UHGV virus genome: UHGV-0251712
Strand: one strand, 5' to 3'
DNA from: a virus
DNA: 16,144 bases
Both the position numbers and the translations under genes were made by a program. Below, in pieces: positions 2,537 to 16,144 of the stretch (positions are counted from its first letter, which is position 1; each line of letters opens with the position of its first letter). The notes beneath the pieces were generated by a model, which was given only the letters and a program-made list of their open reading frames with translations, had not been told where the DNA came from and made no database searches.

Positions 2537-2584
2537 ATGATGAATGACGGTAAGCAACAATCTACCTTTTTGTTTCACGATTAC
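2537..2584 (+). pseudogene. sbcB: 5' fragment of sbcB (exonuclease I): first 16 codons only
   Basis: Translation MMNDGKQQSTFLFHDY matches the N-terminus of E. coli exonuclease I as I recall it (continues ETFGTHPALD in the intact protein). Here it continues AQHP and stops. Divergent orientation from dacD matches K-12. Confidence 0.6.
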
Positions 2585-3205
2585 GCGCAACACCCCTGAG
2601 AACCGCCATGAACAAGGGTTTCATGATTTGTGATTTTAGTTTGGTACGCAATTTGGTACACAACACAATTTTCACTTCAGCGGGTAGTCATCAAACTCAC
2701 CATAACGAGCATCGTTAATGATGTATGTGATCACCACAAACATCACATCTGGACTAGTTCCGCTTTCATGCGCAGGTATTTGTTCACGCCTCCCTTTCTG
2801 CAAATCATAAAGATGAGATTTTGGGGTTTTGGGATATCTTTTATCCGCAGTTCTCTATCCATTATGCAAACCAGTAATGAACCATCACCGTGTGATAGTG
2901 AGGCATCTGCCACGATAAGCGCAGAGAAATGATGCAGTGGTGGGCGGACTGGATTGATGAGAAGGTGGAGTGAACCACCTTAACCACTATCGAAGAGCAC
3001 AAAGCCTTGCAATCCAGTACAAAACTTTGTTTGTCTCATCAACTACCGCAAGTATCGATCGATGGAGCCTTGGATGATAGAATAAATTCGTAGCACTTTT
3101 TTTTAAAGTATCATCTCGCTCATGGTTACGTGATAGAAAAAGGACAAAATAATCTTAAATTTAAAAGCATATAAATCATACAAATAAAATTGTGGTGGGT
3201 GCGTA

Positions 3206-4204
3206 ATGTCTGATATTCGACAAAATAGAATAGAGTTAAATGAAGTGCATATAGCTCGCTCCATGGCTATATTTCTAGTTGTTTTACTTCATTCTTCAGG
3301 TGCTTTTTTTATGCAGTTTGGAGATCATTGGTGGATTGTTAATTTATACAGTTCTTTTTCAAGGCAGTGTATAGGTCTTTTTTTTCTTATCACTGGATAC
3401 CTATTTTATGAAAAAAACATAAACCCAACAGCACACCTAAAAAAAGGAGTGTCGAGATTGATAATACCATTCATATTTTGGTGGGTGGTATATTATATCT
3501 ACAATACAGAGATTAACAACAAATCATATAATTCTATATTTCAACCAAGTGAGGTACACCTTTGGTTTATGTATGCATATATTTGTATATATATGTTTTT
3601 ACCAATAATTTGCAACTCATTAAAACACATACCAACATATTACATTTTAATTATTGTAAGCATGCTTTTTTACTCAAATTCCATTGTCCCTGTAGTTGAT
3701 AAAACGATAATGAAGGTAACATGGTTTGATGTAAAACTAGTGTCTGAAAATGGGATATATATTCTTATTGGGGCAATAATAAGGAGATATAACGATAAAA
3801 TAAAAAAATGCAATGCAGTGATACCATTGGTGATTATTGTTATGTCGTGCCTGTTAACATCAATGGCATCTAGTTGGTGGTCTGAAATAACAGGCAGGCC
3901 TGAGCAGTTTTTCTTTAAAAATACATCTCCACTTGTATTAATATGTGTTATTTCTTCATTTACATTATGCATGTCATACTCAAAAATAATTAGCAAAAGA
4001 TTAATGAATTTATTTACATCAATATCAAATGTTTCATTTGGTATATACTTCGTCCATTTCTTTTTTGTTAGAGAAATTAGACTCGGGTATAATCAAGAAA
4101 ACGCATATTTCATGATACCATTGCTAACAATCATTTATTTTTTAATGTCATATTGCATATCAATAATTCTAAGCAAGATCCCTTTGCTTAGAAAAGTAAT
4201 ATAA
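3206..4204 (+). CDS. Acyltransferase family 3 integral membrane protein, probable phage-encoded O-antigen O-acetyltransferase (Oac-like)
   Basis: 332 aa, highly hydrophobic with many predicted transmembrane segments. N-terminal pattern R-x-E-L-N...A-R-S-M-A-I-F-L-V-V-L-L-H resembles the acyltransferase-3 signature. Strongly AT-rich relative to neighbours. Convergent with and abutting the tailspike gene, as in Sf6-like phages. Confidence 0.7.
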   Translation: MSDIRQNRIELNEVHIARSMAIFLVVLLHSSGAFFMQFGDHWWIVNLYSSFSRQCIGLFFLITGYLFYEKNINPTAHLKKGVSRLIIPFIFWWVVYYIYNTEINNKSYNSIFQPSEVHLWFMYAYICIYMFLPIICNSLKHIPTYYILIIVSMLFYSNSIVPVVDKTIMKVTWFDVKLVSENGIYILIGAIIRRYNDKIKKCNAVIPLVIIVMSCLLTSMASSWWSEITGRPEQFFFKNTSPLVLICVISSFTLCMSYSKIISKRLMNLFTSISNVSFGIYFVHFFFVREIRLGYNQENAYFMIPLLTIIYFLMSYCISIILSKIPLLRKVI

Positions 4205-6451
4205 TTATGGATTGTTAACCTTCCATCTTTTATCATAGTAATGCAAATATCCCTGAGACGTTAGTGTCATATGGACAATCGCTTGGGATATTTGCGCGTT
4301 CTGAAAATTAACTCTAATAAATACTTGAGTGCCAATTGTTATTTTTGATACAGATATCCCGTCAAGAGTCTTGTCTCCTTGTATTTTATTAACCCAAACA
4401 CCTGACGAAGACAAGGTTGCCTGATCCTTTCCGCTTATACTAAATATAATTTTACCTCCTGTTGCCAGTGAGGTGTTTACTCCATTTTGAGATATTGGAA
4501 TTATTGTAATTTCACCAGCAATGAAAACACCATTTTTGTATTTAGATACCTCACCTTGTTCACAAATTAAAATATCAATACATCTACCCCATGGTACTAG
4601 GATTGTTGCATTTTCAGTTTTTACTTGTGGATATACAGCTGAAACACCTGCAGATTCGAAATTTTTTGCTGATAAAACAACTCCGTCAGATCCATTTCTA
4701 AATCCCATTCCTGTATGATCACCGTATGTCCTTCCATGAGAGATGAATCCTCTTACATACTCTTCGGATACTGCGCTACCAGTGGTTTCCTTCTGAAAGA
4801 TAAATGTTTCACCAAAAGAAAAACCACGACATTGGTATTGGCTCTGATAATTTTCTGAGTTCTTAAAAAAGGAAATGCCTTTATATGCTGTTACATAGCC
4901 AGATCTAAATTGAACGGAAACAGGGGTTGTTTGTTCATCTGGAGGTAACTCCACAAAATGTGTAACATTTTGGCTGTTTGATTCCTGTAACCATACAGAA
5001 ACACCATCTATAATCATGGTTGAAAATCTACTGTTTATTTCTAACTCAGAAAAATCAAGAACATGATCACCTGTAACACCCTCAACTCCAAACCCATCAA
5101 TACTTAAAGACCTGAACTGATAGAATTTATGCGGTAACTCACAACCATCAGCTGCAATATTCATTGCGCTAGTGTACATTAATGGGTAAGGACTTATAAT
5201 TGGTTCATATGTTTCTCTATCTATTGCAGCCCCCCAAAGATACCCAACATTACAATGTCTTGCCCAGTTGGAAGAGAATGTAGTAGATGTGCCAGCCAAA
5301 CCGAAACCATAGATACAATCATATGCTTGGTTGTTTGTAACATTACTGACAAAGCATGATAAGGGAAGTGCAAATTTATAATGTAGAAATATGTTATTTT
5401 TAATATCATATTCACTACCCCCGCCAAAGGTTTGTGTTTGACCAGAAATGGCCAATGGGCTACCTGAATATTCATCGTCAGCGTTGCGAAAACACATATT
5501 CTTTACTTTAAGATTGTGCCCCCAACTTCCCATAACAAAACCACCACTTCCTGATGTATAAACAATACTTTTTTGTGGATTAATCCCATATAGATTTAGA
5601 CTAATCCCTTCCCATCTAAACTGGCTAATGTCAATTTGAGTGTTACCAATATATATAGGCTGGTCTATGAAAACAGGAAGTTTAGTTAGATAAGCTTTAT
5701 TAAGTGCTAATCCATCATTTGTTACACCTGTTAAATCAACGCCCCCCATGCTTGGCGCTCTAGGATACCCTGTGGCCTGAATAGTACTCCAGTCAATATA
5801 TGGAGCATCCATCCACGCTCCAAACATACGTGGTGTTACGTACCCCTTACCTTGAAGATCACGTTTCCAGCGTTTACCACCCACAGTGACAATGACCATG
5901 CCGTTATCATCTGCAGAAGTAGAATCTGTGAAATCGGCCACAAACAGACCACCACCAGTATCACCTGATACTGTCGGCTTCATGCCTGTAGTGTGGAAGT
6001 CGACGAAAATCTTTTGCTGATCTCGCTCAGGCTCAATTGTCCTTAACATTGCTATATCAGGGCATGTCCCGATGTATTTAAGACCGTCTTCCCCTGATAG
6101 AGATACTTTAAGCTGATCAGGATCATATTTAAGAACATTCGGAAAATAGAACTGCTGTGCACCATATGCATCATAAACAGCCATAGAATGGCCTTGCACA
6201 GTTACGAACTTGGCAATCTGTCCGTTATATACCGGATATCCAGCAGCGTTAATGATGATTGGTTGCGAAACAGGAACGCGAGAACCGTCTTCATTCTCCA
6301 CATAAACCTGAATCTGGTTTTCAGGATTTACCGGGTCAGTGTCAATTTTACCGATATAAATTTTGCCATTGGCTACGGCTTTAAAAGAACGAGCCATAGT
6401 GAAGAGTTGCGAAGGCATGCTTACCACAACATTTGCGGTGATATCTGACAT
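4205..6451 (-). CDS. P22-like tailspike protein (gene 9 homologue) with conserved head-binding N-terminal domain and divergent receptor-binding domain
   Basis: From the internal Met, [43 protein letters not shown]...VLKYDPDQ aligns with the P22 tailspike N-terminal domain ([43 protein letters not shown]). A GGAG ribosome-binding site sits 7 nt upstream of the ATG at 6449-6451. The ORF-track start at 6499 is probably an upstream extension. Confidence 0.85.
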
Positions 6452-6572
6452 TTCATTGCTCCAGACGAATGATATGATGCAACCATGATGTGATTGCATA
6501 CCGAAATGGTACTATTGAGTATTTATCCAGTAGGTTACGATGCCATTCCACCCAACTGGTGAGGCATCAAGG

Positions 6573-6833
6573 ATGTACAGCAAATACGACGAGGCGCAGT
6601 TTCACTTGAGACTTCCGCATGAACTCCACGCGAAAATTAAGCAGCGTGCGAAGATGAATAACAGGTCGCTGAACTCAGAGATAATTGCAGCGATTGAAGA
6701 ATCATTGGCTAAACAAAGCTCTGCATCTGTTTACATTGACGATGCAGAGCGTATGGCAGAACAACAATCTGATATGGTTAAGAAAATTGTCTTTGATACG
6801 CTCAAGGAGCTATATAAAAAAGACAGCAGCTAA
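6573..6833 (+). CDS. mnt: Mnt-like ribbon-helix-helix repressor (P22 immI region)
   Basis: QFHLRLPHELHAKIKQRAKMNNRSLNSEII...DDAERMAEQQSDMVKKIVFDTLKELYKK aligns with P22 Mnt (HFNFRMPMEVREKLKFRAEANGRSMNSELL...NDAERLADEQSELVKKMVFDTLKDLYKK). AAGGA ribosome-binding site before the ATG at 6573. Divergent from the tailspike gene. Confidence 0.75.
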   Translation: MYSKYDEAQFHLRLPHELHAKIKQRAKMNNRSLNSEIIAAIEESLAKQSSASVYIDDAERMAEQQSDMVKKIVFDTLKELYKKDSS

Positions 6834-6922
6834 CCATCAGTTACGGAGGATTTATGCAAAGAGATATGCTGAACATTGCGTTCTACATATTTGGTTTTTG
6901 CACGTTCCTGGTGTTTGCGAAG

Positions 6923-9316
6923 CTATTCTGACAACGCATCAGACTTGGCACCCTGAGTAAGGGCGTTAATGGCCTTTTGCGCCTGCTGCATGGCTTTCTC
7001 AAACGCTGTTGATCCGCGTGGGGTGTTTGCCATTCGGAGCATTGCATTTCTGAATGGCTCGCTCTCATAGGCGCGAGTAAGAAGTCCGTAGCTTACTGCT
7101 GCGCCAGTTGTCGCCGGGTTCATTGCCGTCCCATATCCGATAATGAACGGGATGGTTTGCTGCCCTGTTGGTGTTGTTACTGCCGCTTTTGCTGCCTGCT
7201 GAGTGGACTGAAGGTAGTTTTTCAATCCTTTCAGATAAGCGGCTTCCTGACCTTTAAATGTGATGCCAGTCTGGTTTTGCAGGATGTTAAGCTGTCGAAG
7301 GAACTGGTCAGGTGAACCACCTGATTTCTCTATCGCCTTTCCAATAATGCCATTGCGCATTTGCGCTCTTCCAACGCGACCAACTGAGTTATACAGCGTC
7401 TTAATTTCCGATTTGTTCTTGCTGAATAGCATGTTGTTGACAACTTCCGGCGTCAGGTCGCCTTTCATGAGAACATTCTTCAGCCTGGTATTCTTTAGTT
7501 TCGCCGCTTCGTCAGCGTATACGGCATTGGCCTGCTGATATTTACGGAGAGTATCGTTGCCAAGATTCTGACCAATGGCACCATTGATATCGTCTGTCAT
7601 CGCCTTGTAAACGCGCTGAATGGCAGCATCGGAACGGTTTGGTAACACTGGTCGTTCACCCTTCACGTCCATTCTGAACTGGCTGCGCAGATCGCTTAAT
7701 TGCTTCAAATCCAGATTTACCGGACCATCAGGACCAGCATTGCGAACAAGCTCATCACGATATGACTGAAGTTTTGAAATAGTCTCGTTATCAGCAACCT
7801 TACCAAGCTTCTGCAGGTTAGATATTTCTGTATCAATCTGCTGAATTGCTCGCGCAGGCTGAATGTTTACTCCAGCCATAGCATTCTGAACCTGCTCCAG
7901 TCGATTACCGGCGGCACGACGAATTCCTGATGTTTTCGCTTTAAGGCTGTCAATAACAACAGATGGATCATACTCACCGAATTTATCAGCAAATCTCTGC
8001 ACCAACTGGCTTCTCGCTTCCTGTTGCGTTGCTCTCATTCCGCTTGTGCCAGCCAGAGGAATATTTTCTGCTGTAGTCTGCGCCATTTTTCCGACGCGGG
8101 AAGTAGGCTGTAACAGGTCTGTGGTGTGCAGAGGAACTCCTTCACGCTCTGCAAATCTGATAGCTTGCTGTGCTTCTGGCGCGATAGCACCACGAACGCC
8201 ACGATAAGCAGCACCTAATCCACGTCCGGCAGCGTTAATAGCACCGCCAGCAAGTACACCAACGCCTAAATCGGTGGCGAGTGCTTCCGCATCATCTTTC
8301 GCACTATTTGCAGCAAGTGATCCAACTGCGTTTTCTGCTAGAAGGCGAGTTGCCCCCTGAGCAATTCGACCAGCAAGTGTTGGTGCCTGTGCTGCCGCTC
8401 TCTCAACGCCAGCAGGAGTGAGGTAAGGCAATGCTTCAGCAAATACCCTTCCCTCTGTCGTTTGTGGAGTCAGCGCGCCTTGCCGAAGGCCAAAGTCCCG
8501 CTCTAATCCCTGCGTTGTTACTCGTGGTGCTGGTTGATATGTACCATCGCCAATGCCGAGTTTACCGCCAGCCCAAGCCGCCGCGCTTGTTACAGCATCA
8601 GTGAGTTCAGCAGGTATGTTCGCTACGTTGATTCCTGCCTGTAGTATGCCGCGCCCGGTTTCAGCAAGTCCATTACCAAGGTCAGACATTATTCCGCCTT
8701 GCTGCTGAACAGGTTTCGGTGCGACAGAACTTACGGGTTGAGGTGGCTGCTGACTGGCTGCCTGCTGCTCAATCTGAGCAAATGGATTATTTGGGTCTGA
8801 CTGCACACCTGATGCCGATACTTGTTCGGATGACTGTACTTCCAGTTGTGCAAACGGGTTGTTAGGGTCTTGCTGAGGATGTACCTTTGCAGAGGTGGCG
8901 CGCTGTTCGACTGTTGAGTCTGTCACCGGGTCACCCGCCCATTGAGCAAAGCGATCATCAACGTAACCGCGGCCTTCAGGTCCTGGCGTATATTCACCAC
9001 GCTTTGCCTTCATAACGTTGCCGGGACCGTCGTGATAAGCCTGAAGAGCGTCACGCCAGTTACCAAACTGCTGGTACATCTTTGCCAGATAGCGCGCGCC
9101 AGCGTCAGCCTGATATTCGGGGTTTTGCATTTGCTCATCGGTATAACCCATATCACGCCATGTCCCAGGCATGACCTGAGTCAATCCTACAGCCCCGGCG
9201 GAGCTTACTGCGGCAGGGTTGTAAGAAGACTCCTTGGCACCCAGTGCAGTCATCAACCCTTCTGGCACACCGTAACGTGCGCCAGCCTGCTCTAACAAAT
9301 CACGGTAATTAGCCAT
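6923..9316 (-). CDS. Phage ejection/injection (internal virion) protein with N-terminal lytic transglycosylase-like domain
   Basis: 797 aa. N-terminus (GVPEGLMTALGAKESSYNPAAVSSAGAVGLTQVMPGTW) resembles the SLT-domain catalytic region (E-S...GLMQ pattern). Start ATG immediately follows the stop of the upstream 443-aa gene. Sits between the ejection genes and the mnt/tailspike region, like P22 gene 16. Confidence 0.65.
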   Translation of the reverse strand: MANYRDLLEQAGARYGVPEGLMTALGAKESSYNPAAVSSAGAVGLTQVMPGTWRDMGYTDEQMQNPEYQADAGARYLAKMYQQFGNWRDALQAYHDGPGNVMKAKRGEYTPGPEGRGYVDDRFAQWAGDPVTDSTVEQRATSAKVHPQQDPNNPFAQLEVQSSEQVSASGVQSDPNNPFAQIEQQAASQQPPQPVSSVAPKPVQQQGGIMSDLGNGLAETGRGILQAGINVANIPAELTDAVTSAAAWAGGKLGIGDGTYQPAPRVTTQGLERDFGLRQGALTPQTTEGRVFAEALPYLTPAGVERAAAQAPTLAGRIAQGATRLLAENAVGSLAANSAKDDAEALATDLGVGVLAGGAINAAGRGLGAAYRGVRGAIAPEAQQAIRFAEREGVPLHTTDLLQPTSRVGKMAQTTAENIPLAGTSGMRATQQEARSQLVQRFADKFGEYDPSVVIDSLKAKTSGIRRAAGNRLEQVQNAMAGVNIQPARAIQQIDTEISNLQKLGKVADNETISKLQSYRDELVRNAGPDGPVNLDLKQLSDLRSQFRMDVKGERPVLPNRSDAAIQRVYKAMTDDINGAIGQNLGNDTLRKYQQANAVYADEAAKLKNTRLKNVLMKGDLTPEVVNNMLFSKNKSEIKTLYNSVGRVGRAQMRNGIIGKAIEKSGGSPDQFLRQLNILQNQTGITFKGQEAAYLKGLKNYLQSTQQAAKAAVTTPTGQQTIPFIIGYGTAMNPATTGAAVSYGLLTRAYESEPFRNAMLRMANTPRGSTAFEKAMQQAQKAINALTQGAKSDALSE

Positions 9317-10648
9317 TTACTGCCCCAAAGATGGAAGATATCCGTAGCGATTAATGAAGTCGATTGACAGCTCGGGGTGCTGCTTCAGGTAATCTATAGA
9401 AGCCTGAGGCGCTTCCACTCGCTTGATACCGTTTTGCTGAACGTACTTACCAACCGCCTCATTACGCTTCTGGTTGAGCGTGTTCAGGATGACGCCAGCG
9501 TTGCGACGAAAGGACTCCTCGCTCTGCGAGTTCTGCAGCGAACCAACAGCCTGGTCGAGCTTTTTGCCCTCGGCATCAGAAAGTGCGCCCATGCCTCGCA
9601 TGGCCTGAACCGCTGTCAGGTATGCTTGGGATTTAAAGGTATCAAGTCGTGCCTGAGTGTCTGCAGCCTGTGAGCCTGGAACGTTGGGGATTACTCCACG
9701 TAAGCCTGTAATGCTCTTAAGTGAAGGAGAACTAACGATATCGTTCAGAGTGAACATGCTGGTTGTGAGGGTGTTGATGCCGTCTTTGTAGCCATCATTT
9801 AGCGCTTGCTGCTTCTGCTGCAACTGCTGGTTGTTGGCTGCTATGCGGCTCTGTATTTCCTGGCGCTTCAGGTCGTTAGTTTCTGCTGATAGCATCCGGT
9901 CAAGGCGCTTATTTTCGTTGTTAATGCGGTTTGTTTCTGCGTCCAGATTAATGCGCTGCTGACCTAAATTCGCCTGGATATCTTGCCCGCGCATTGTGAT
10001 TGCCTGATTCCGAGCGGCGGTTTGCGAATCCAGATCCTGACCGCGCATGGTAACCTGGCGACCCTGCATTTTATCCTGTAGGTCAAAGTATTTTTCGGGT
10101 CCGAGACTGTTCATCCCCAGGTGATCGACAAATTCGCCGAACTGCCGCGGGTTCTGTTGGTACATCTGAGCGACATCCTGAGGATTAACGCCAACACGAG
10201 CTAACTCACCGGCGTTGTTTTGCAGCCATGATTGCATTGCTTCTGGAGACGATGACGCAAGGCGTGCGCCAGCCGCTAAGGTGCCGATAGAATTACGCTG
10301 ATCTTCATCAATGAATCCCATGCCTTTACGAACGGATTCAATCTGTTCTGGATATTGAGTAGCCAACTGACGCAAAGCACCGCGATCACCAGACGCATAA
10401 GCATTAGCGTATGCCTGCTGAAATTCTTTCTGCCGCTGAGCCTGCTTTTCCTGCTGAAACACCCCCGCAATACCTGAAAGGCCTTGCAAAGCAGTCAGCC
10501 CAACATTGTTAGCGCCTGAACGCTCAATATCATTGTTCTGCCTGATAAGCTGAAGCGTATTGCCGATGTCATTTACGCTCGGAGCGTTTGAGTTGACGCC
10601 GCCGATACCAGCCAACAATCCGCCGTTTGTTCCTTGCCAAGTAGCCAT
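9317..10648 (-). CDS. Phage ejection/DNA-transfer protein (P22 gene 20-like)
   Basis: 443 aa, Q/N/A-rich low-complexity with coiled-coil character; in operon with and immediately upstream of the 797-aa protein; size and context fit P22-like gp20. Family assignment is by context only. Confidence 0.55.
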   Translation of the reverse strand: MATWQGTNGGLLAGIGGVNSNAPSVNDIGNTLQLIRQNNDIERSGANNVGLTALQGLSGIAGVFQQEKQAQRQKEFQQAYANAYASGDRGALRQLATQYPEQIESVRKGMGFIDEDQRNSIGTLAAGARLASSSPEAMQSWLQNNAGELARVGVNPQDVAQMYQQNPRQFGEFVDHLGMNSLGPEKYFDLQDKMQGRQVTMRGQDLDSQTAARNQAITMRGQDIQANLGQQRINLDAETNRINNENKRLDRMLSAETNDLKRQEIQSRIAANNQQLQQKQQALNDGYKDGINTLTTSMFTLNDIVSSPSLKSITGLRGVIPNVPGSQAADTQARLDTFKSQAYLTAVQAMRGMGALSDAEGKKLDQAVGSLQNSQSEESFRRNAGVILNTLNQKRNEAVGKYVQQNGIKRVEAPQASIDYLKQHPELSIDFINRYGYLPSLGQ

Positions 10649-10657
10649 GATTACCCC

Positions 10658-10855
10658 TTAAAACAACGAGCCAAGCAATCCGATACCAGCACCAATGCCA
10701 GCGCCCCAAGGCGTTGATGTTCCCAAAAGGCTGGCAAGACCTGCACCGGCAATCGCACCAGACGTGCCACCGCTAATTGCAGTCTGAAGACTTGATGGTT
10801 TAACCAAAGAGTAGTTGGCTTTGGGGTGACGTGAAGTGCAGCTGCACGACGGCAA
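10658..10855 (-). CDS. Small Gly/Ala-rich ORF, possibly the 3' remnant of an upstream ejection-protein gene (gene 7-like) truncated by a deletion joint
   Basis: 65-aa ORF ending 9 bp before the 443-aa gene. Hydrophobic Gly/Ala-rich C-terminus. Begins at a TTG inside the region occupied on the other strand by the ssb fragment, so its 5' end is unlikely to be native. Confidence 0.3.
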
Positions 10856-11267
10856 CCTGACAATAGCAACGTCAGAACAATGGCGAGATAAAAATACTGG
10901 CGAGCAAAAGGAATTGACTGAATGGCATCGTGTTGCTGTATCCGGGAAACTGGCTGAGGTCGTGGGGCAGTATGTGAAAAAAGGTGATCAGATTTATTTC
11001 GAGGGAATGCTGAGAACCAGAAAGTGGAAAGACCAGTCAGGGCAAGACCGTTACACAACCGAGGTTCATGTCGGAATTAATGGCGTGATGCAAATGCTTG
11101 GCGGCATTGGCGACAGCAAACAACAAGCAGCCAGCAGGCAATCACAGAAGCCACAGCAGCAATCATCACCAGCACAACACAACGAACCTCCGATGGATTT
11201 TGACGACGATATACCCTTTGCACCAGTAACTCTCCCCTTCCCTCGTCACGCTATTCACGCAATTTAA
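10830..11267 (+). pseudogene. ssb: Single-stranded DNA-binding protein gene (ssb), 5'-truncated and with a C-terminal extension beyond the DDDIPF tip
   Basis: Translation [22 protein letters not shown]...[54 protein letters not shown]...[10 protein letters not shown] aligns with E. coli SSB from about residue 30 onward. The N-terminal ~30 residues are absent (in-frame stop at 10827-10829). After DDDIPF there is no stop and the frame continues 15 codons. Confidence 0.75.
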
Positions 11268-12052: not shown

Positions 12053-12742
12053 ATGAGCAAGATTGCCTATCAGGCACTGCGTGAAAAGGCAGAGAAAGCA
12101 ACGTGTGGTGTGTGGTCGCTCGAATATGGAGAGGGCCGATTTGATGGTGATGATGCGCTAATTCATCGTGAAGTTGCTGGATATATTCCCATTTGCAGAA
12201 TTGAAGGAGCGCATCCTGAAAGCGGTTTCGATGAAGATTTCCAAATGGAACAGCAGGCCAATGCTGAATTCATCGCAGCAGCCAGTCCAGCTACCGTGCT
12301 GGCACTACTGGATGAACGGGAAAGAAACCAGCAGTACATCAAACGCCGCGACCAGGAGAACGAAGATATTGCGCTAACGGTAGGGAAGCTGCGTGTTGAT
12401 CTGGAAGCCGCAGAGAAGCGCAACGCAAAATTACAAAGCGAGAATGCATACATCCGCAACAGGTACAAAGAACTGGACCTATTAATCGGGAAAAACATTC
12501 TGGTCATGCAGGCTGCCATTATCGAATGGCAATCTACTGGCGACGCTAAAAGCGGACTGGCATGGATTTATAACACACTGTTTGGCCCAGGCGAATTGCC
12601 GGACGAATCTGAGAAAGATGCTCAGGCCTACTTTAATCGCAAAAATGAACCGATTGACGAAAAGCTTATGGAGCTTCACAAGTGGTTTTGGGAACAAAGT
12701 GAAGCCGAGCGTGTCGCTGGCATTCGCATCAAAGGAGAGTGA
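12053..12742 (+). CDS. Ead/Ea22-like family protein (lambdoid early-left accessory protein)
   Basis: 229 aa with a central coiled-coil-like segment; N-terminus MSKIAYQALREKAEK... resembles proteins annotated Ead/Ea22-like in enterobacterial prophages (recollection, not searched); position in the early-left region. Confidence 0.5.
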   Translation: MSKIAYQALREKAEKATCGVWSLEYGEGRFDGDDALIHREVAGYIPICRIEGAHPESGFDEDFQMEQQANAEFIAAASPATVLALLDERERNQQYIKRRDQENEDIALTVGKLRVDLEAAEKRNAKLQSENAYIRNRYKELDLLIGKNILVMQAAIIEWQSTGDAKSGLAWIYNTLFGPGELPDESEKDAQAYFNRKNEPIDEKLMELHKWFWEQSEAERVAGIRIKGE

Positions 12743-13547: not shown

Positions 13548-14195
13548 ATGAATTGCAAATCAATGACCAGAAAATATGCCATCATGATCGATGCTGGTTT
13601 TTTGCGTGCAAAATTAGGCACAAAAGATAAGCCAATCGATGCGGAAGTAATCAAAGTATTTGTAGAAAAACTAACAAAAAGGCATGAACTAGAAGGCATG
13701 ATTTTGCACCGTGTTTATTATTACGATGCAGAGCCGCTTACCGGAATACAGACGCATCCGATTAGTGGAGAGAAAATTGACTTCTCTGAAACAGAAGTTT
13801 CTAAAAGAAATAAAGCCATGCTTGATGAGTTGAAAAGAACTCCTTTTTTTGCAGTAAGACTTGGAGAGACAAACTTTCGAGGATGGAAGGTTGACCCATG
13901 GGCATTAAAGAGCAGTGACTCTAAAACTTCTTCCATTAATGCCTACAATGTTAAGCCTAATGTTCAGCAGAAAGGCGTTGATATGCGTATTGCGTTAGAT
14001 ATGTCATCAATGTCATTAAAAAAACAGGCAGATATATATGCTTTGGTGACTGGTGATTCAGATTTTGTTCCAATTATAAAATTTGCTAGGAAAGAAGGCC
14101 GACAGATTTTTCTATACACACTGGGACATAGTGTCAAGCAGACGATGTATGAACATTCCGATTTGTTAGTGCCAGATACCATGGATAAATTGTGA
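13548..14195 (+). CDS. NYN-domain (PIN-like, LabA/limkain-b1-type) predicted ribonuclease
   Basis: 215 aa with NYN hallmarks: N-terminal YAIMIDAGF, central KGVDMRIALDM, and C-terminal ALVTGDSDFVPIIKFARKEGRQIF (the typical GDxDF...G block). AT-rich relative to flanking phage genes. True start may be the ATG at 13563. Confidence 0.65.
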   Translation: MNCKSMTRKYAIMIDAGFLRAKLGTKDKPIDAEVIKVFVEKLTKRHELEGMILHRVYYYDAEPLTGIQTHPISGEKIDFSETEVSKRNKAMLDELKRTPFFAVRLGETNFRGWKVDPWALKSSDSKTSSINAYNVKPNVQQKGVDMRIALDMSSMSLKKQADIYALVTGDSDFVPIIKFARKEGRQIFLYTLGHSVKQTMYEHSDLLVPDTMDKL

Positions 14196-14822: not shown

Positions 14823-14927
14823 GATGACCGATACCAGCCTGATTCCTGAGAAAGAAGTGATGAACAAGCTCGGTGTTTCATCACGTCAGACAATCTGGAA
14901 CTATACCAAACGGCACGGATGGATATA
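14823..14927 (+). pseudogene. AlpA/excisionase-family helix-turn-helix gene, 3'-truncated (34 codons)
   Basis: MTDTSLIPEKEVMNKLGVSSRQTIWNYTKRHG fits the AlpA/Xis-type HTH pattern (L-x-x-x-E-V...G-x-S-R-x-T-I-x). Intact members run about 60-70 aa. Here the frame ends WI-stop inside the 36-bp inverted-repeat copy that starts at 14917. Confidence 0.5.
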
Positions 14928-14952
14928 GGTTACTGGCGAACACATGATTTCA
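14917..14952. repeat. Left copy of perfect 36-bp inverted repeat bracketing the integrase 3' segment
   Basis: ggatggatataggttactggcgaacacatgatttca is exactly the reverse complement of 15154-15189, with mismatches immediately outside both ends. Confidence 0.9.
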
Positions 14953-15140
14953 GAAGAACGCTTGTTACACGTCTGTCCGAGATGAATGTCGAGCCTCATG
15001 TTACTGAGCGAATGCTCGGTCATGAACTTGGCGGGATAATGTCCGTATACAATAAACACGATTGGATAGAGGCTCAGCGCAAAGCGTATGAGCTTCACGC
15101 TGATAAATTGTTCTGGCACATCAGGAGCATTTCTGATTAA
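14919..15140 (+). pseudogene. Detached C-terminal segment of a tyrosine integrase, inverted relative to the rest of the gene
   Basis: MDIGYWRTHDFRRTLVTRLSEMNVEPHVTERMLGHELGGIMSVYNKHDWIEAQRKAYELHADKLFW carries the H-x-x-R and catalytic Tyr region. Its first 11 residues duplicate the last residues of the minus-strand integrase ORF. Confidence 0.8.
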
Positions 15141-15148
15141 CGCCACCG

Positions 15149-16144
15149 TTAAGTGAAATCATGTGTTCGCCAGTAACCTATATCCATCCCTCCCCTTATT
15201 CTATTTACGAATCGGTTGGCTGCAGCGATGCTGATCGGTTTGTTTATGTCTTCTCCAGGGAAAAGAACATCATTGTACGTTGTCATGGCCTTATCGAGGA
15301 AAGGCTTAATTTGTTCGAAGATTGGACGGCGGATAACATTACCCATCTTGCTATGCTCTTTCGGTACGGTCCATACGTTGTCCAGCAGGTCAAATTCTGT
15401 CTTTGTTGCCAGCCTAAGCTCTGAGAGCCTCGCCCCCCACAGCATAAGCATCTGATGAAGGAGCTTATTTGACGTAGACGCACGGCTTCTTTCAATAGCA
15501 AGCCAAATCTTAGCCAGTTCGTGATACGACAGTACCCGATCCCCTACCTCAGCGCGGGAGCCGAAGTCCCTTGGCTGGATGCTCATAATTGCGCAACTAT
15601 CTATCAACTGACGCCGCATGCACCAACTAATTGCTGATCTTAGTTGACTTAGCACCTGCCTTGCTCGGCGTGGATTATCTTTTTCTTCTTCGGTAAGCAG
15701 GTCAACCCATTGCTTAACCGTGATAGAAGATGCCGGACGATTAGGAAAGGCGTCATGCATGCGCTTCATAACCGTTGATCGGTAAAGTGCCTGGGTCTTT
15801 TCTCTGAGAGTTGTAGAGACGTAGTTGTCGAACCAGTAGTCGAGACACTGGGCGACCGTCATGGAGTTCTCCACCTTCTCTTCAAAATAAGTGCGTGGAT
15901 CCGTTCCTGAGAAATAGAGCTTTCGCAAGTCAGCAGTGATCTGTCTGGCATCCTTCAAAGACAGGGATGGGTATCGACCAAGCCCAAGTCGATTAGGCTT
16001 GCCATGCCAGCGATAGCGGTACTGGAACTGGATGACCCCCTTCGGTGAAATTCGTACGCTGAGGCCATCGGCATCAGCCACTTCTTGTGGGCCCGAATAT
16101 GGTTTACCATAAATAGTACGCAGTTTTGTGTCGCTTATAGCCAT
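15149..16144 (-). CDS. P4-type tyrosine integrase, N-terminal 330 codons; truncated before the catalytic Tyr
   Basis: N-terminus has the arm-binding pattern of P4-family integrases (GLSVRISPKGVIQFQYRYRWHGKPNRLGLGRYPSLSLKDAR). ORF ends ...GGMDIGYWRTHDFT-stop at the right copy of the 36-bp repeat. Start codon is the last 3 bases of the window. Confidence 0.8.
   Translation of the reverse strand: MAISDTKLRTIYGKPYSGPQEVADADGLSVRISPKGVIQFQYRYRWHGKPNRLGLGRYPSLSLKDARQITADLRKLYFSGTDPRTYFEEKVENSMTVAQCLDYWFDNYVSTTLREKTQALYRSTVMKRMHDAFPNRPASSITVKQWVDLLTEEEKDNPRRARQVLSQLRSAISWCMRRQLIDSCAIMSIQPRDFGSRAEVGDRVLSYHELAKIWLAIERSRASTSNKLLHQMLMLWGARLSELRLATKTEFDLLDNVWTVPKEHSKMGNVIRRPIFEQIKPFLDKAMTTYNDVLFPGEDINKPISIAAANRFVNRIRGGMDIGYWRTHDFT
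15154..15189. repeat. Right copy of perfect 36-bp inverted repeat
   Basis: Reverse complement identical to 14917-14952. Confidence 0.9.

Follow-up and report, generated by a model that had tools for sequence, protein, structure and literature searches.

We analysed a 16,144-nucleotide stretch of DNA, virus genome UHGV-0251712 (the whole of which we call the window), which carries the remnant of a P22-like prophage, and focused on positions 3000–6833, where an acyltransferase gene, a tailspike gene and a gene for an Mnt-like repressor lie side by side. The three proteins named in the initial annotation, including the P22-type character of the tailspike, are all present and intact as judged by Pfam and PHROG matches. 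Our reading of this region, to which we give a probability of about 75%, is that it represents the ordinary host-recognition end of a P22-like prophage, left by an internal deletion that spared both phage ends.

The host DNA in the window is Escherichia coli chromosome, with sbmC (564–1043) and dacD (1162–2334), followed by phage DNA that continues to an integrase at the right edge. In the K-12 reference, dacD is followed directly by sbcB. Positions 2537–2585 (plus strand) of the window hold the displaced original 5' end of sbcB, MMNDGKQQSTFLFHDY, together with the attachment (att) core, and constitute attR; the segment matches the beginning of K-12 sbcB exactly and still encodes the first 16 SbcB codons, with prophage DNA beginning at about 2586. 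The direct-repeat core TTTCACGATTACG is common to both ends of the element and was found at the integrase-proximal end in PSJ-16. An attP-type junction is carried by the relative L009, and the integrase end of the relatives supplies a replacement sbcB 5' end. Since the att core is shared and the original sbcB start is displaced, the prophage can be placed in the 5' end of sbcB and, judged from its sequence, the element is a P22-like (Lederbergvirus-type) E. coli prophage integrated at this site. A tRNA att site was sought first and was ruled out, as the att lies inside sbcB and tRNAs are absent from the window; an Rfam search of the window found no known RNAs. The sbcB gene is a known site of prophage integration in E. 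coli O157 strains (PMC8309913). P22-like prophages, full-length or partial, occupy this site in many E. coli genomes and differ in their tailspike and O-antigen-modification genes.

The acyltransferase gene (3206–4204, plus strand) encodes a membrane protein of 332 residues. Pfam Acyl_transf_3 (PF01757) matches residues 13–323 (E 5e-34, 118 bits against a cut-off of 31) and no second domain was detected in the Pfam scan, hence the protein is AT3-only. It also matches a PHROG O-acetyltransferase family (E 1e-13). The motifs that define the AT3 family are a conserved Arg and the catalytic His, arranged as R-X10-H at the start of the domain, and FF..G. In an alignment of the subfamily that included Sf6 Oac, R18 and H29 (R-X10-H), F59, G64, H118, S277, G279 and Y281 are invariant, and F60 of the FF..G motif is nearly so. 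The best phage match was phiV10 Oac, at 27% identity, and the similarity to Sf6 Oac (BLASTP E 0.2, ~21% identity in the alignment) fell short of orthology. NCBIfam and PADLOC searches left the acyltransferase unmatched, and an equivalog model for this protein is absent from NCBIfam. From family, position and linkage we infer that the protein is an O-antigen O-acetylase, encoded by a lysogenic conversion gene. The masking of the O-antigen that was initially ascribed to it is a reasonable role.

The acyltransferase and tailspike genes converge and their stop codons abut with no spacer (TAA at 4202–4204, TTA at 4205–4207). The only terminator-like hairpin after the tailspike (4167–4193, minus strand) lies just 3' of the tailspike stop, inside the 3' coding end of the acyltransferase gene, and is a weak candidate, as hairpins in this region are no more numerous than in shuffled sequence.

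The tailspike start was assigned to the ATG at 6451, which has GGAG upstream, and not to the longest-ORF (open reading frame) start at 6499. This gives a protein of 748 residues (4205–6451), equal in length to the annotated orthologue of strain 22KM0354, and the 16 additional codons at the start of the longest ORF are spurious. Residues 1–117 (6101–6451, minus strand) form the head-binding domain: Pfam Head_binding (PF09008) matches residues 1–113 (E 4.5e-67), the N-terminus is nearly identical to residues 1–116 of Sf6 gp14, and the PDB matches are to the Sf6 and P22 N-domains. A neck domain follows (residues ~118–213, 5810–6097, minus strand), which is related to the N-domain of CBA120 TSP2 (PDB 5w6p, 6w4q, 6tgf) and is nearly invariant within the receptor-binding family. 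The receptor-binding/catalytic part comprises residues ~215–748 (4205–5809, minus strand; precomputed Pfam PF27114). When the PDB was searched by sequence, no match extended beyond the N-terminal ~215 residues into the tailspike body (~535 residues). The AlphaFold2 model of the body is a parallel β-helix with a predicted local distance difference test (pLDDT) score of 83.5. Foldseek matched this model best to tailspike depolymerases, many at a probability of 1.0 and including those of Sf6 and HK620, at 9–14% identity.

Thus, the mosaic of a conserved head-binding domain and a different body noticed in the initial annotation is borne out, with the boundary at nucleotides ~6108–6114. Modelling of the C-terminal part, proposed there as a route to glycan specificity, yielded the parallel β-helix in an intact ORF; catalytic residues were not assignable in the tailspike. 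The receptor-binding family recurs at 43–50% identity behind other anchor domains in Kagunavirus, T7-like, ~154-kb and 48-kb phages. Swapping of receptor-binding modules between phage genera is already documented (Pas et al. 2023, PMC10408124).

We compared guanine–cytosine (GC) content across the region, overall and at third codon positions (GC3). The acyltransferase gene has a GC content of 29.4% (GC3 27.3%) and the part of the tailspike gene encoding residues 118–748 has 38.5% (GC3 27.4%). The corresponding GC values are 41.6% for the head-binding part, 41.8% for mnt, and 51.5% for the gp16 and gp20 genes. The low-GC block is therefore the acyltransferase together with the receptor-binding part of the tailspike, forming one cassette, and not the acyltransferase alone. 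The foreign composition noted initially stands, but the block had been drawn too narrowly, since the tailspike receptor-binding part shares it (GC3 27% in both), and in place of a separately acquired acyltransferase we find one cassette that also contains this part of the tailspike.

At the left edge of the cassette lies a scar (2913–2973, plus strand), the 3' remnant of a gene for an IntS-type integrase that would end in MQWWADWIDEKVE before the stop; matches to argW/IntS prophages (L003, L021) begin precisely there, within the intS 3' end, and the match to 22KM0354 likewise begins at 2913. This scar shows that the cassette originated in an Sf6-like int–oac–tailspike arrangement. The block from 2913 to the head-binding/mnt/gp16 region is found at ≥99% identity in four prophage backbones. 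These are the sbcB remnant (the window and isolate GCA_024502405.1, which is 100% identical over 2586–6923), an argW/IntS prophage (L021), a prophage at bio/ybhB, the integration site of lambda (strain 22KM0354), and a prophage with a lambda-like integrase (L020). The last three have complete late genes as far as their sequence reaches, in 22KM0354 through lysis and nin. We propose that the cassette moves between backbones by recombination, which takes place in the conserved head-binding/mnt/gp16 sequence at one end and close to att at the other.

The acyltransferase belongs to a small subfamily, with ten clusters in a collection of 5.8 billion proteins, and linkage was assessed for the members with a readable neighbourhood. 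All five diverged members examined (53–100% identity) lie beside a tailspike of the same receptor-binding family. These pairs are the window type, that of strain 573, that of L009 (tailspike 78% identical), that of L008 (tailspike 47% identical and truncated) and that shared by L006 and L007 (tailspike 58% identical, separated from the acyltransferase by gtrABC-like genes). The tailspike cluster P0001 counts 114 member sequences, and cassette variants at 77%, 68% and 58% occur as well. Quite different modification genes are found in other P22-like prophages that share this att site.

Serogroup data connect this pairing to particular O-antigens. Strain 22KM0354, a complete genome with the window-type cassette, belongs to serogroup O83, and strain 573, likewise a complete genome, with a diverged cassette (acyltransferase 55%, tailspike 77% identical), to O32. 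The O83 and O32 O-antigen clusters are syntenic, with wzx 56%, wzy 42% and the glycosyltransferases 53–56% identical, and have a GC content of 30%, like the cassette. The receptor-binding family of the window is also carried by a Kagunavirus named after the O83 strain NRG857c, which we take to be its host. A literature search on the structures of the O83 and O32 antigens found nothing useful. The specificity of the tailspike is probably for an O83-like O-antigen, which it is predicted to cleave. The linkage and serogroup data fit the logic known from Sf6, P22 and BTP1, in which the tailspike reads the O-antigen and the acyltransferase masks it, with the O-antigen as the putative substrate here too. 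In Lederbergviruses and Uetakeviruses, O-antigen modification genes behind the tailspike have been described as preventing superinfection (PMC10408124).

That the acyltransferase instead acts on a substrate other than the O-antigen seems to us quite improbable. AT3 enzymes as a whole have many substrates, this one is only 21–27% identical to characterised phage O-antigen acetylases, and it is without an NCBIfam equivalog model. However, its position, orientation and size are the same as those of Sf6 oac, it matches the PHROG O-acetyltransferase family, it is paired consistently with one receptor-binding family across 45% sequence divergence, and the divergence of the cassette parallels that of the related O83 and O32 clusters.

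The third gene encodes an Mnt-like ribbon-helix-helix repressor of 86 residues (6573–6833, plus strand), with its start at 6573 and not at 6540. It matches Pfam Arc (PF03869, E 1e-14) and Repressor_Mnt (PF11423, E 3e-14), and NCBIfam and PADLOC searches returned generic ribbon-helix-helix families only. The protein is 49% identical to P22 Mnt. His6 and Asn8 are DNA-reading residues in P22 Mnt, and the aligned residues are Gln and His. P22 Mnt represses the arc–ant operon via the operator AGGTCCACGGTGGACCT. Between mnt and the tailspike of the window arc and ant genes are absent, this operator was not found before the tailspike, and hence control of an adjacent arc–ant pair through the P22 mnt operator does not apply here. 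We also sought a P22-like Pant promoter with an Omnt operator upstream of the tailspike; the operator was absent and the promoter matches were poor. No sigma-70 promoter match above 8 of 12 points toward the tailspike, and the extended −10 matches point toward mnt. A 23-bp imperfect palindrome, ATGCAACCAtgatgTGATTGCAT, lies at or next to these extended −10 matches between tailspike and mnt (6477–6499) and is a candidate Mnt operator, its placement suggesting Mnt autoregulation. Comparison of the tailspike–mnt intergenic sequence was uninformative, as it is almost invariant among five relatives. The arrangement of Mnt beside the tailspike is the commonest in this phage group, with Mnt at 64 of 80 loci and the identical compact layout at 35 of the 80. 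The remnant is also without a c2-type repressor, and with that gene deleted Mnt alone would have no obvious role in superinfection immunity. Thus, the suggestion that Mnt serves as a stand-alone immunity factor finds no footing in a locus where arc, ant, the c2-type repressor and the P22 operator are all missing.

Twenty nucleotides after mnt we found an unannotated hydrophobic ORF of 25 residues (6854–6931, plus strand), MQRDMLNIAFYIFGFCTFLVFAKLF, with a GGAGG ribosome-binding site. It overlaps the stop of the gp16-like gene by 9 nt. The ORF is intact in all 86 of the P22-like loci compared, Sf6 among them, across 44 DNA variants and three upstream contexts. Variable sites number 14, 8 and 18 at the first, second and third codon positions, synonymous changes recur, and in the hydrophobic core most nonsynonymous changes occur only once. 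The peptide was not found in PHROGs nor in a collection of 15 billion proteins, and a literature search on it found nothing useful. This pattern of conservation makes its product a candidate conserved small membrane protein. In some relatives a gene for a predicted 161-residue lipoprotein, with a signal peptide ending in LLLVGC, lies between mnt and the small ORF (L010, 3988–4473). It occupies the position of P22 sieA, to which it is unrelated, and the window has no such gene.

Beyond this ORF the remnant retains two ejection proteins, a gp16-like protein of 797 residues with an N-terminal lytic transglycosylase domain (6923–9316, minus strand; Pfam SLT, precomputed Phage_P22_gp16) and a gp20-like protein of 443 residues (9317–10648, minus strand; Pfam Inj_translocase, E 3.8e-68), both intact. 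The first deletion junction follows in a 145-nt 3' fragment of the gp7 ejection gene (10658–10802, minus strand). The fragment is 100% identical to L005 22371–22472 over 10701–10802, where similarity ends, and its left end at 10658 is extrapolated from the annotated gp7 stop of L005. Alignment to the full-length relative SH21PTE31 showed that the next segment (10802–11267, plus strand) consists of 59 bp of early-left gene filler (10802–10860), followed from 10854 by an ssb gene without its first 93 nt, in agreement with a Pfam SSB match that begins at profile position 27. The second and third junctions lie here, and the second joint has a 7 bp near-identical overlap. This structure implies a compound deletion, arising from at least two illegitimate recombination events or from one complex event.

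Thus, the remnant is a ~13.8-kb deletion derivative of a P22-like prophage, cut inside gp7 and inside ssb. With these junctions mapped, the remnant status of the prophage supposed in the initial annotation is secured. Relative to full-length relatives it has lost the c2-type repressor and the replication, nin, late activator, lysis, terminase, portal, coat and tail genes. It has the features of a defective prophage, namely truncated genes at the internal junctions, loss of the replication, lysis and head genes, and retention of the att ends. A search of 5,426 complete E. coli genomes found none that spans the junction. The same junction is present in isolate GCA_024502405.1 and in contigs from at least 8–10 gut metagenomes or sequencing runs, with a total of 28 index blocks.

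Retained genes may differ in whether they can still be transcribed. The acyltransferase and mnt, the latter with the small ORF, could still be expressed, and loss of the late promoter has probably silenced the tailspike, gp16 and gp20. A use of the retained tailspike by the cell, for example in trimming its own O-antigen, or as a recombination reservoir for incoming phages, appears very improbable. In its favour, the tailspike has an intact ORF that does not differ from copies beside complete late regions, its conserved flanks would permit recombination, and the activity of the BTP1 tailspike affects the O-antigen of lysogen cultures (PMC4413052). Yet the late promoter and its activator are deleted from the remnant, no good promoter faces the tailspike, and the protein has no export signal; its release is normally via lysis, and the lysis genes are gone.

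We next considered the idea that the cell has domesticated the acyltransferase, tailspike and Mnt, selection having kept them as a module that serves the host through serotype conversion and superinfection exclusion while the rest of the phage decayed. Three independent remnants keep the acyltransferase end. Those of the window and PSJ-16 are at sbcB. The third, L008, has a similar Arm-DNA-bind_3-type integrase on a contig without host flank, and retains a whole acyltransferase beside its truncated tailspike. The catalytic motifs of the window acyltransferase are intact, and the remnant is found in many samples. Internal deletions, however, spare att-proximal genes by geometry alone, and the retained set is everything between the breakpoints and the att ends. 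The gp16-like and gp20-like proteins, useless without a virion, are as intact as the three named genes. Retention of the acyltransferase end in the independent remnants, and the pattern in L008, follow from the same geometry and are also compatible with weak selection for the acyltransferase.

The divergence data bear on the same question. The receptor-binding part of the tailspike is 100% identical in nucleotide sequence to the copy in L010, which has late genes to the end of its contig, and the acyltransferase gene differs at 3 nt. Among eight copies of the remnant from different samples the right arm is unchanged except for an E>K substitution in the acyltransferase of L119, at window position 3746, so the only change in the cassette is nonsynonymous. 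With so few substitutions, the ratio of nonsynonymous to synonymous rates (dN/dS) is powerless as a measure of domestication. Divergence is close to zero both among the remnants and relative to prophages whose late regions are complete, which makes a selection signal impossible; near-zero substitution since the deletion therefore means that neither selection nor decay is yet visible. Mnt, in addition, is without an arc, ant or c2 partner in the remnant. We consider domestication unlikely, and the selective retention proposed in the initial annotation lacks support. The remnant is very young and is preserved by position, not demonstrably by selection: the cluster was retained because it lies outside the deleted segment.

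Several points weigh against our reading of the region as an ordinary prophage end. The occurrence of the remnant in many samples means that it is not strongly counter-selected, and is compatible with some benefit. The promoter statements are based on weak consensus matches, the substrate of the acyltransferase is read solely from family, position and linkage, and the O83/O32 link is based on one genome each. The linkage of acyltransferase and tailspike could also reflect common descent of a linked pair and not functional coupling. A fuller version of the selective view would have the right arm act as a working anti-phage surface module, in which the AT3 enzyme, by acetylating an O83-type O-antigen, blocks P22-like, Kagunavirus, T7-like and larger phages with tailspikes of this receptor-binding family, with mnt and the 25-residue peptide as a second expressed unit and selection explaining the recurrent right-arm remnants at sbcB. 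We regard this as unlikely, and retain the ordinary prophage end as the preferred reading.

The remaining features of the window lie outside the region. The phage arm adjoining attR (2586–2912) contains relics of an S24-peptidase (UmuD-like) gene without an intact ORF and matches L009, L001 and L005, whose annotation includes an intact S24 peptidase gene. Two further genes were noted at 12053–12742 and 13548–14195: one for an Ead/Ea22-like protein, of which residues 118–214 match the PADLOC DpdH model (E 1e-36), and a low-GC gene near the integrase end for a NYN-domain protein with a weak PADLOC NYN match. Either gene could be a left-arm accessory or defence-related gene.

Both ends of the window show assembly irregularities. 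Positions 1–297 (GC 57%) have no match in the 5,426 complete E. coli genomes, and an ORF at 53–346 matches the model of the TraG ATPase of Bacteroidetes conjugative transposons (TIGR03783, E 1e-14); the left end looks chimeric, as in metagenome misassembly. Positions 463–684 hold the 5' end of yeeA and intergenic sequence in reverse complement, with ~64 bp duplicated in inverted orientation (298–361 and 463–526), and 121 bp of the sbmC 3' end are missing, giving the ORF at 564–1043 an aberrant SbmC C-terminus. No relative has the 298–684 rearrangement, and the altered SbmC protein is not on record. At the other end, an inversion affects a 237-bp segment (14917–15153) comprising the integrase 3' end and its overlap with a xis-like gene; it is accompanied by a 36-bp duplication and a 62-bp loss, and it shortens the integrase ORF. 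The inversions of ~230 bp near the window ends are absent from every relative, including the otherwise 99.9%-identical isolate. Decay as the cause of the truncated, 331-residue integrase was set aside, since GCA_024502405.1 has an intact integrase of 392 residues and a 63-residue xis-like gene, and the truncation is probably an assembly artefact.

Comparison with known systems places the region close to gene 14 and oac of Sf6, where a gp16-like gene, the tailspike and a convergent AT3-only acyltransferase of ~333 residues also lie next to int and att. The head-binding domains are nearly identical, and there too the acetylase masks the O-antigen that the tailspike reads. Unlike in the window, Sf6 is without mnt and has an annotated terminator and spacer between tailspike and oac, whereas the stops abut in the window; the acyltransferases are ~21% identical and the β-helix of the window belongs to a different family. 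The P22 immI/gene 9/gtrABC region shares gene 16, mnt (Mnt 49% identical), the tailspike and convergent O-antigen modification at the att-proximal end. In contrast to P22, the window lacks sieA, arc, ant, sar and the P22 operator, and has a single acyltransferase in place of gtrABC.

BTP1 GtrC (PMC4413052) and phiV10 Oac are likewise prophage acyltransferases that modify the O-antigen targeted by their own tailspike, though their sequence similarity to the window protein is distant and the latter is AT3-only. The tailspike modules shared across genera (PMC10408124) offer a parallel in having one receptor-binding family behind various anchors, but differ in that the window pair is uncharacterised.

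Deletion derivatives of this general form also have precedent. CPS-53/KpLE1 of K-12 is a defective prophage with argW–intS–gtrAB-type genes that keeps its att-proximal conversion genes. In CPS-53/KpLE1, as in the window, an internal deletion leaves the ends that carry the integrase and the O-antigen modification genes, whereas the window remnant is very young, with intact ORFs.

We propose the following model for the full phage and its remnant. By analogy with Sf6 and P22, the tailspike would be joined to the tail via its conserved N-terminal head-binding domain, and its β-helix would bind and cleave one particular O-antigen, probably of an O83-like type. Once lysogeny is established, the convergent AT3 acyltransferase, from a promoter of its own, would acetylate the O-antigen such that tailspikes of the same type fail to recognise it. 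Mnt would act as a small ribbon-helix-helix repressor, divergent from the tailspike, in a phage group without an adjoining arc or ant. Recent illegitimate deletions then joined gp7 to ssb, and the cluster was kept only for lying outside the deleted segment.

The tailspike and O-antigen-modification module of P22-like prophages is already known, and the member described here is an ordinary, uncharacterised one; beyond annotation, the finding is of little consequence. An intact set of useful-looking genes in a remnant formed by a young deletion is not evidence of domestication. The tailspike–acyltransferase pair is an uncharacterised specificity cassette, probably for O83/O32-type O-antigens. 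Serogroup O83 includes adherent-invasive and extraintestinal E. coli, and the pair could help in host-range prediction, in the correction of serotype calls, and in the choice or engineering of therapeutic phages that share the receptor-binding family.

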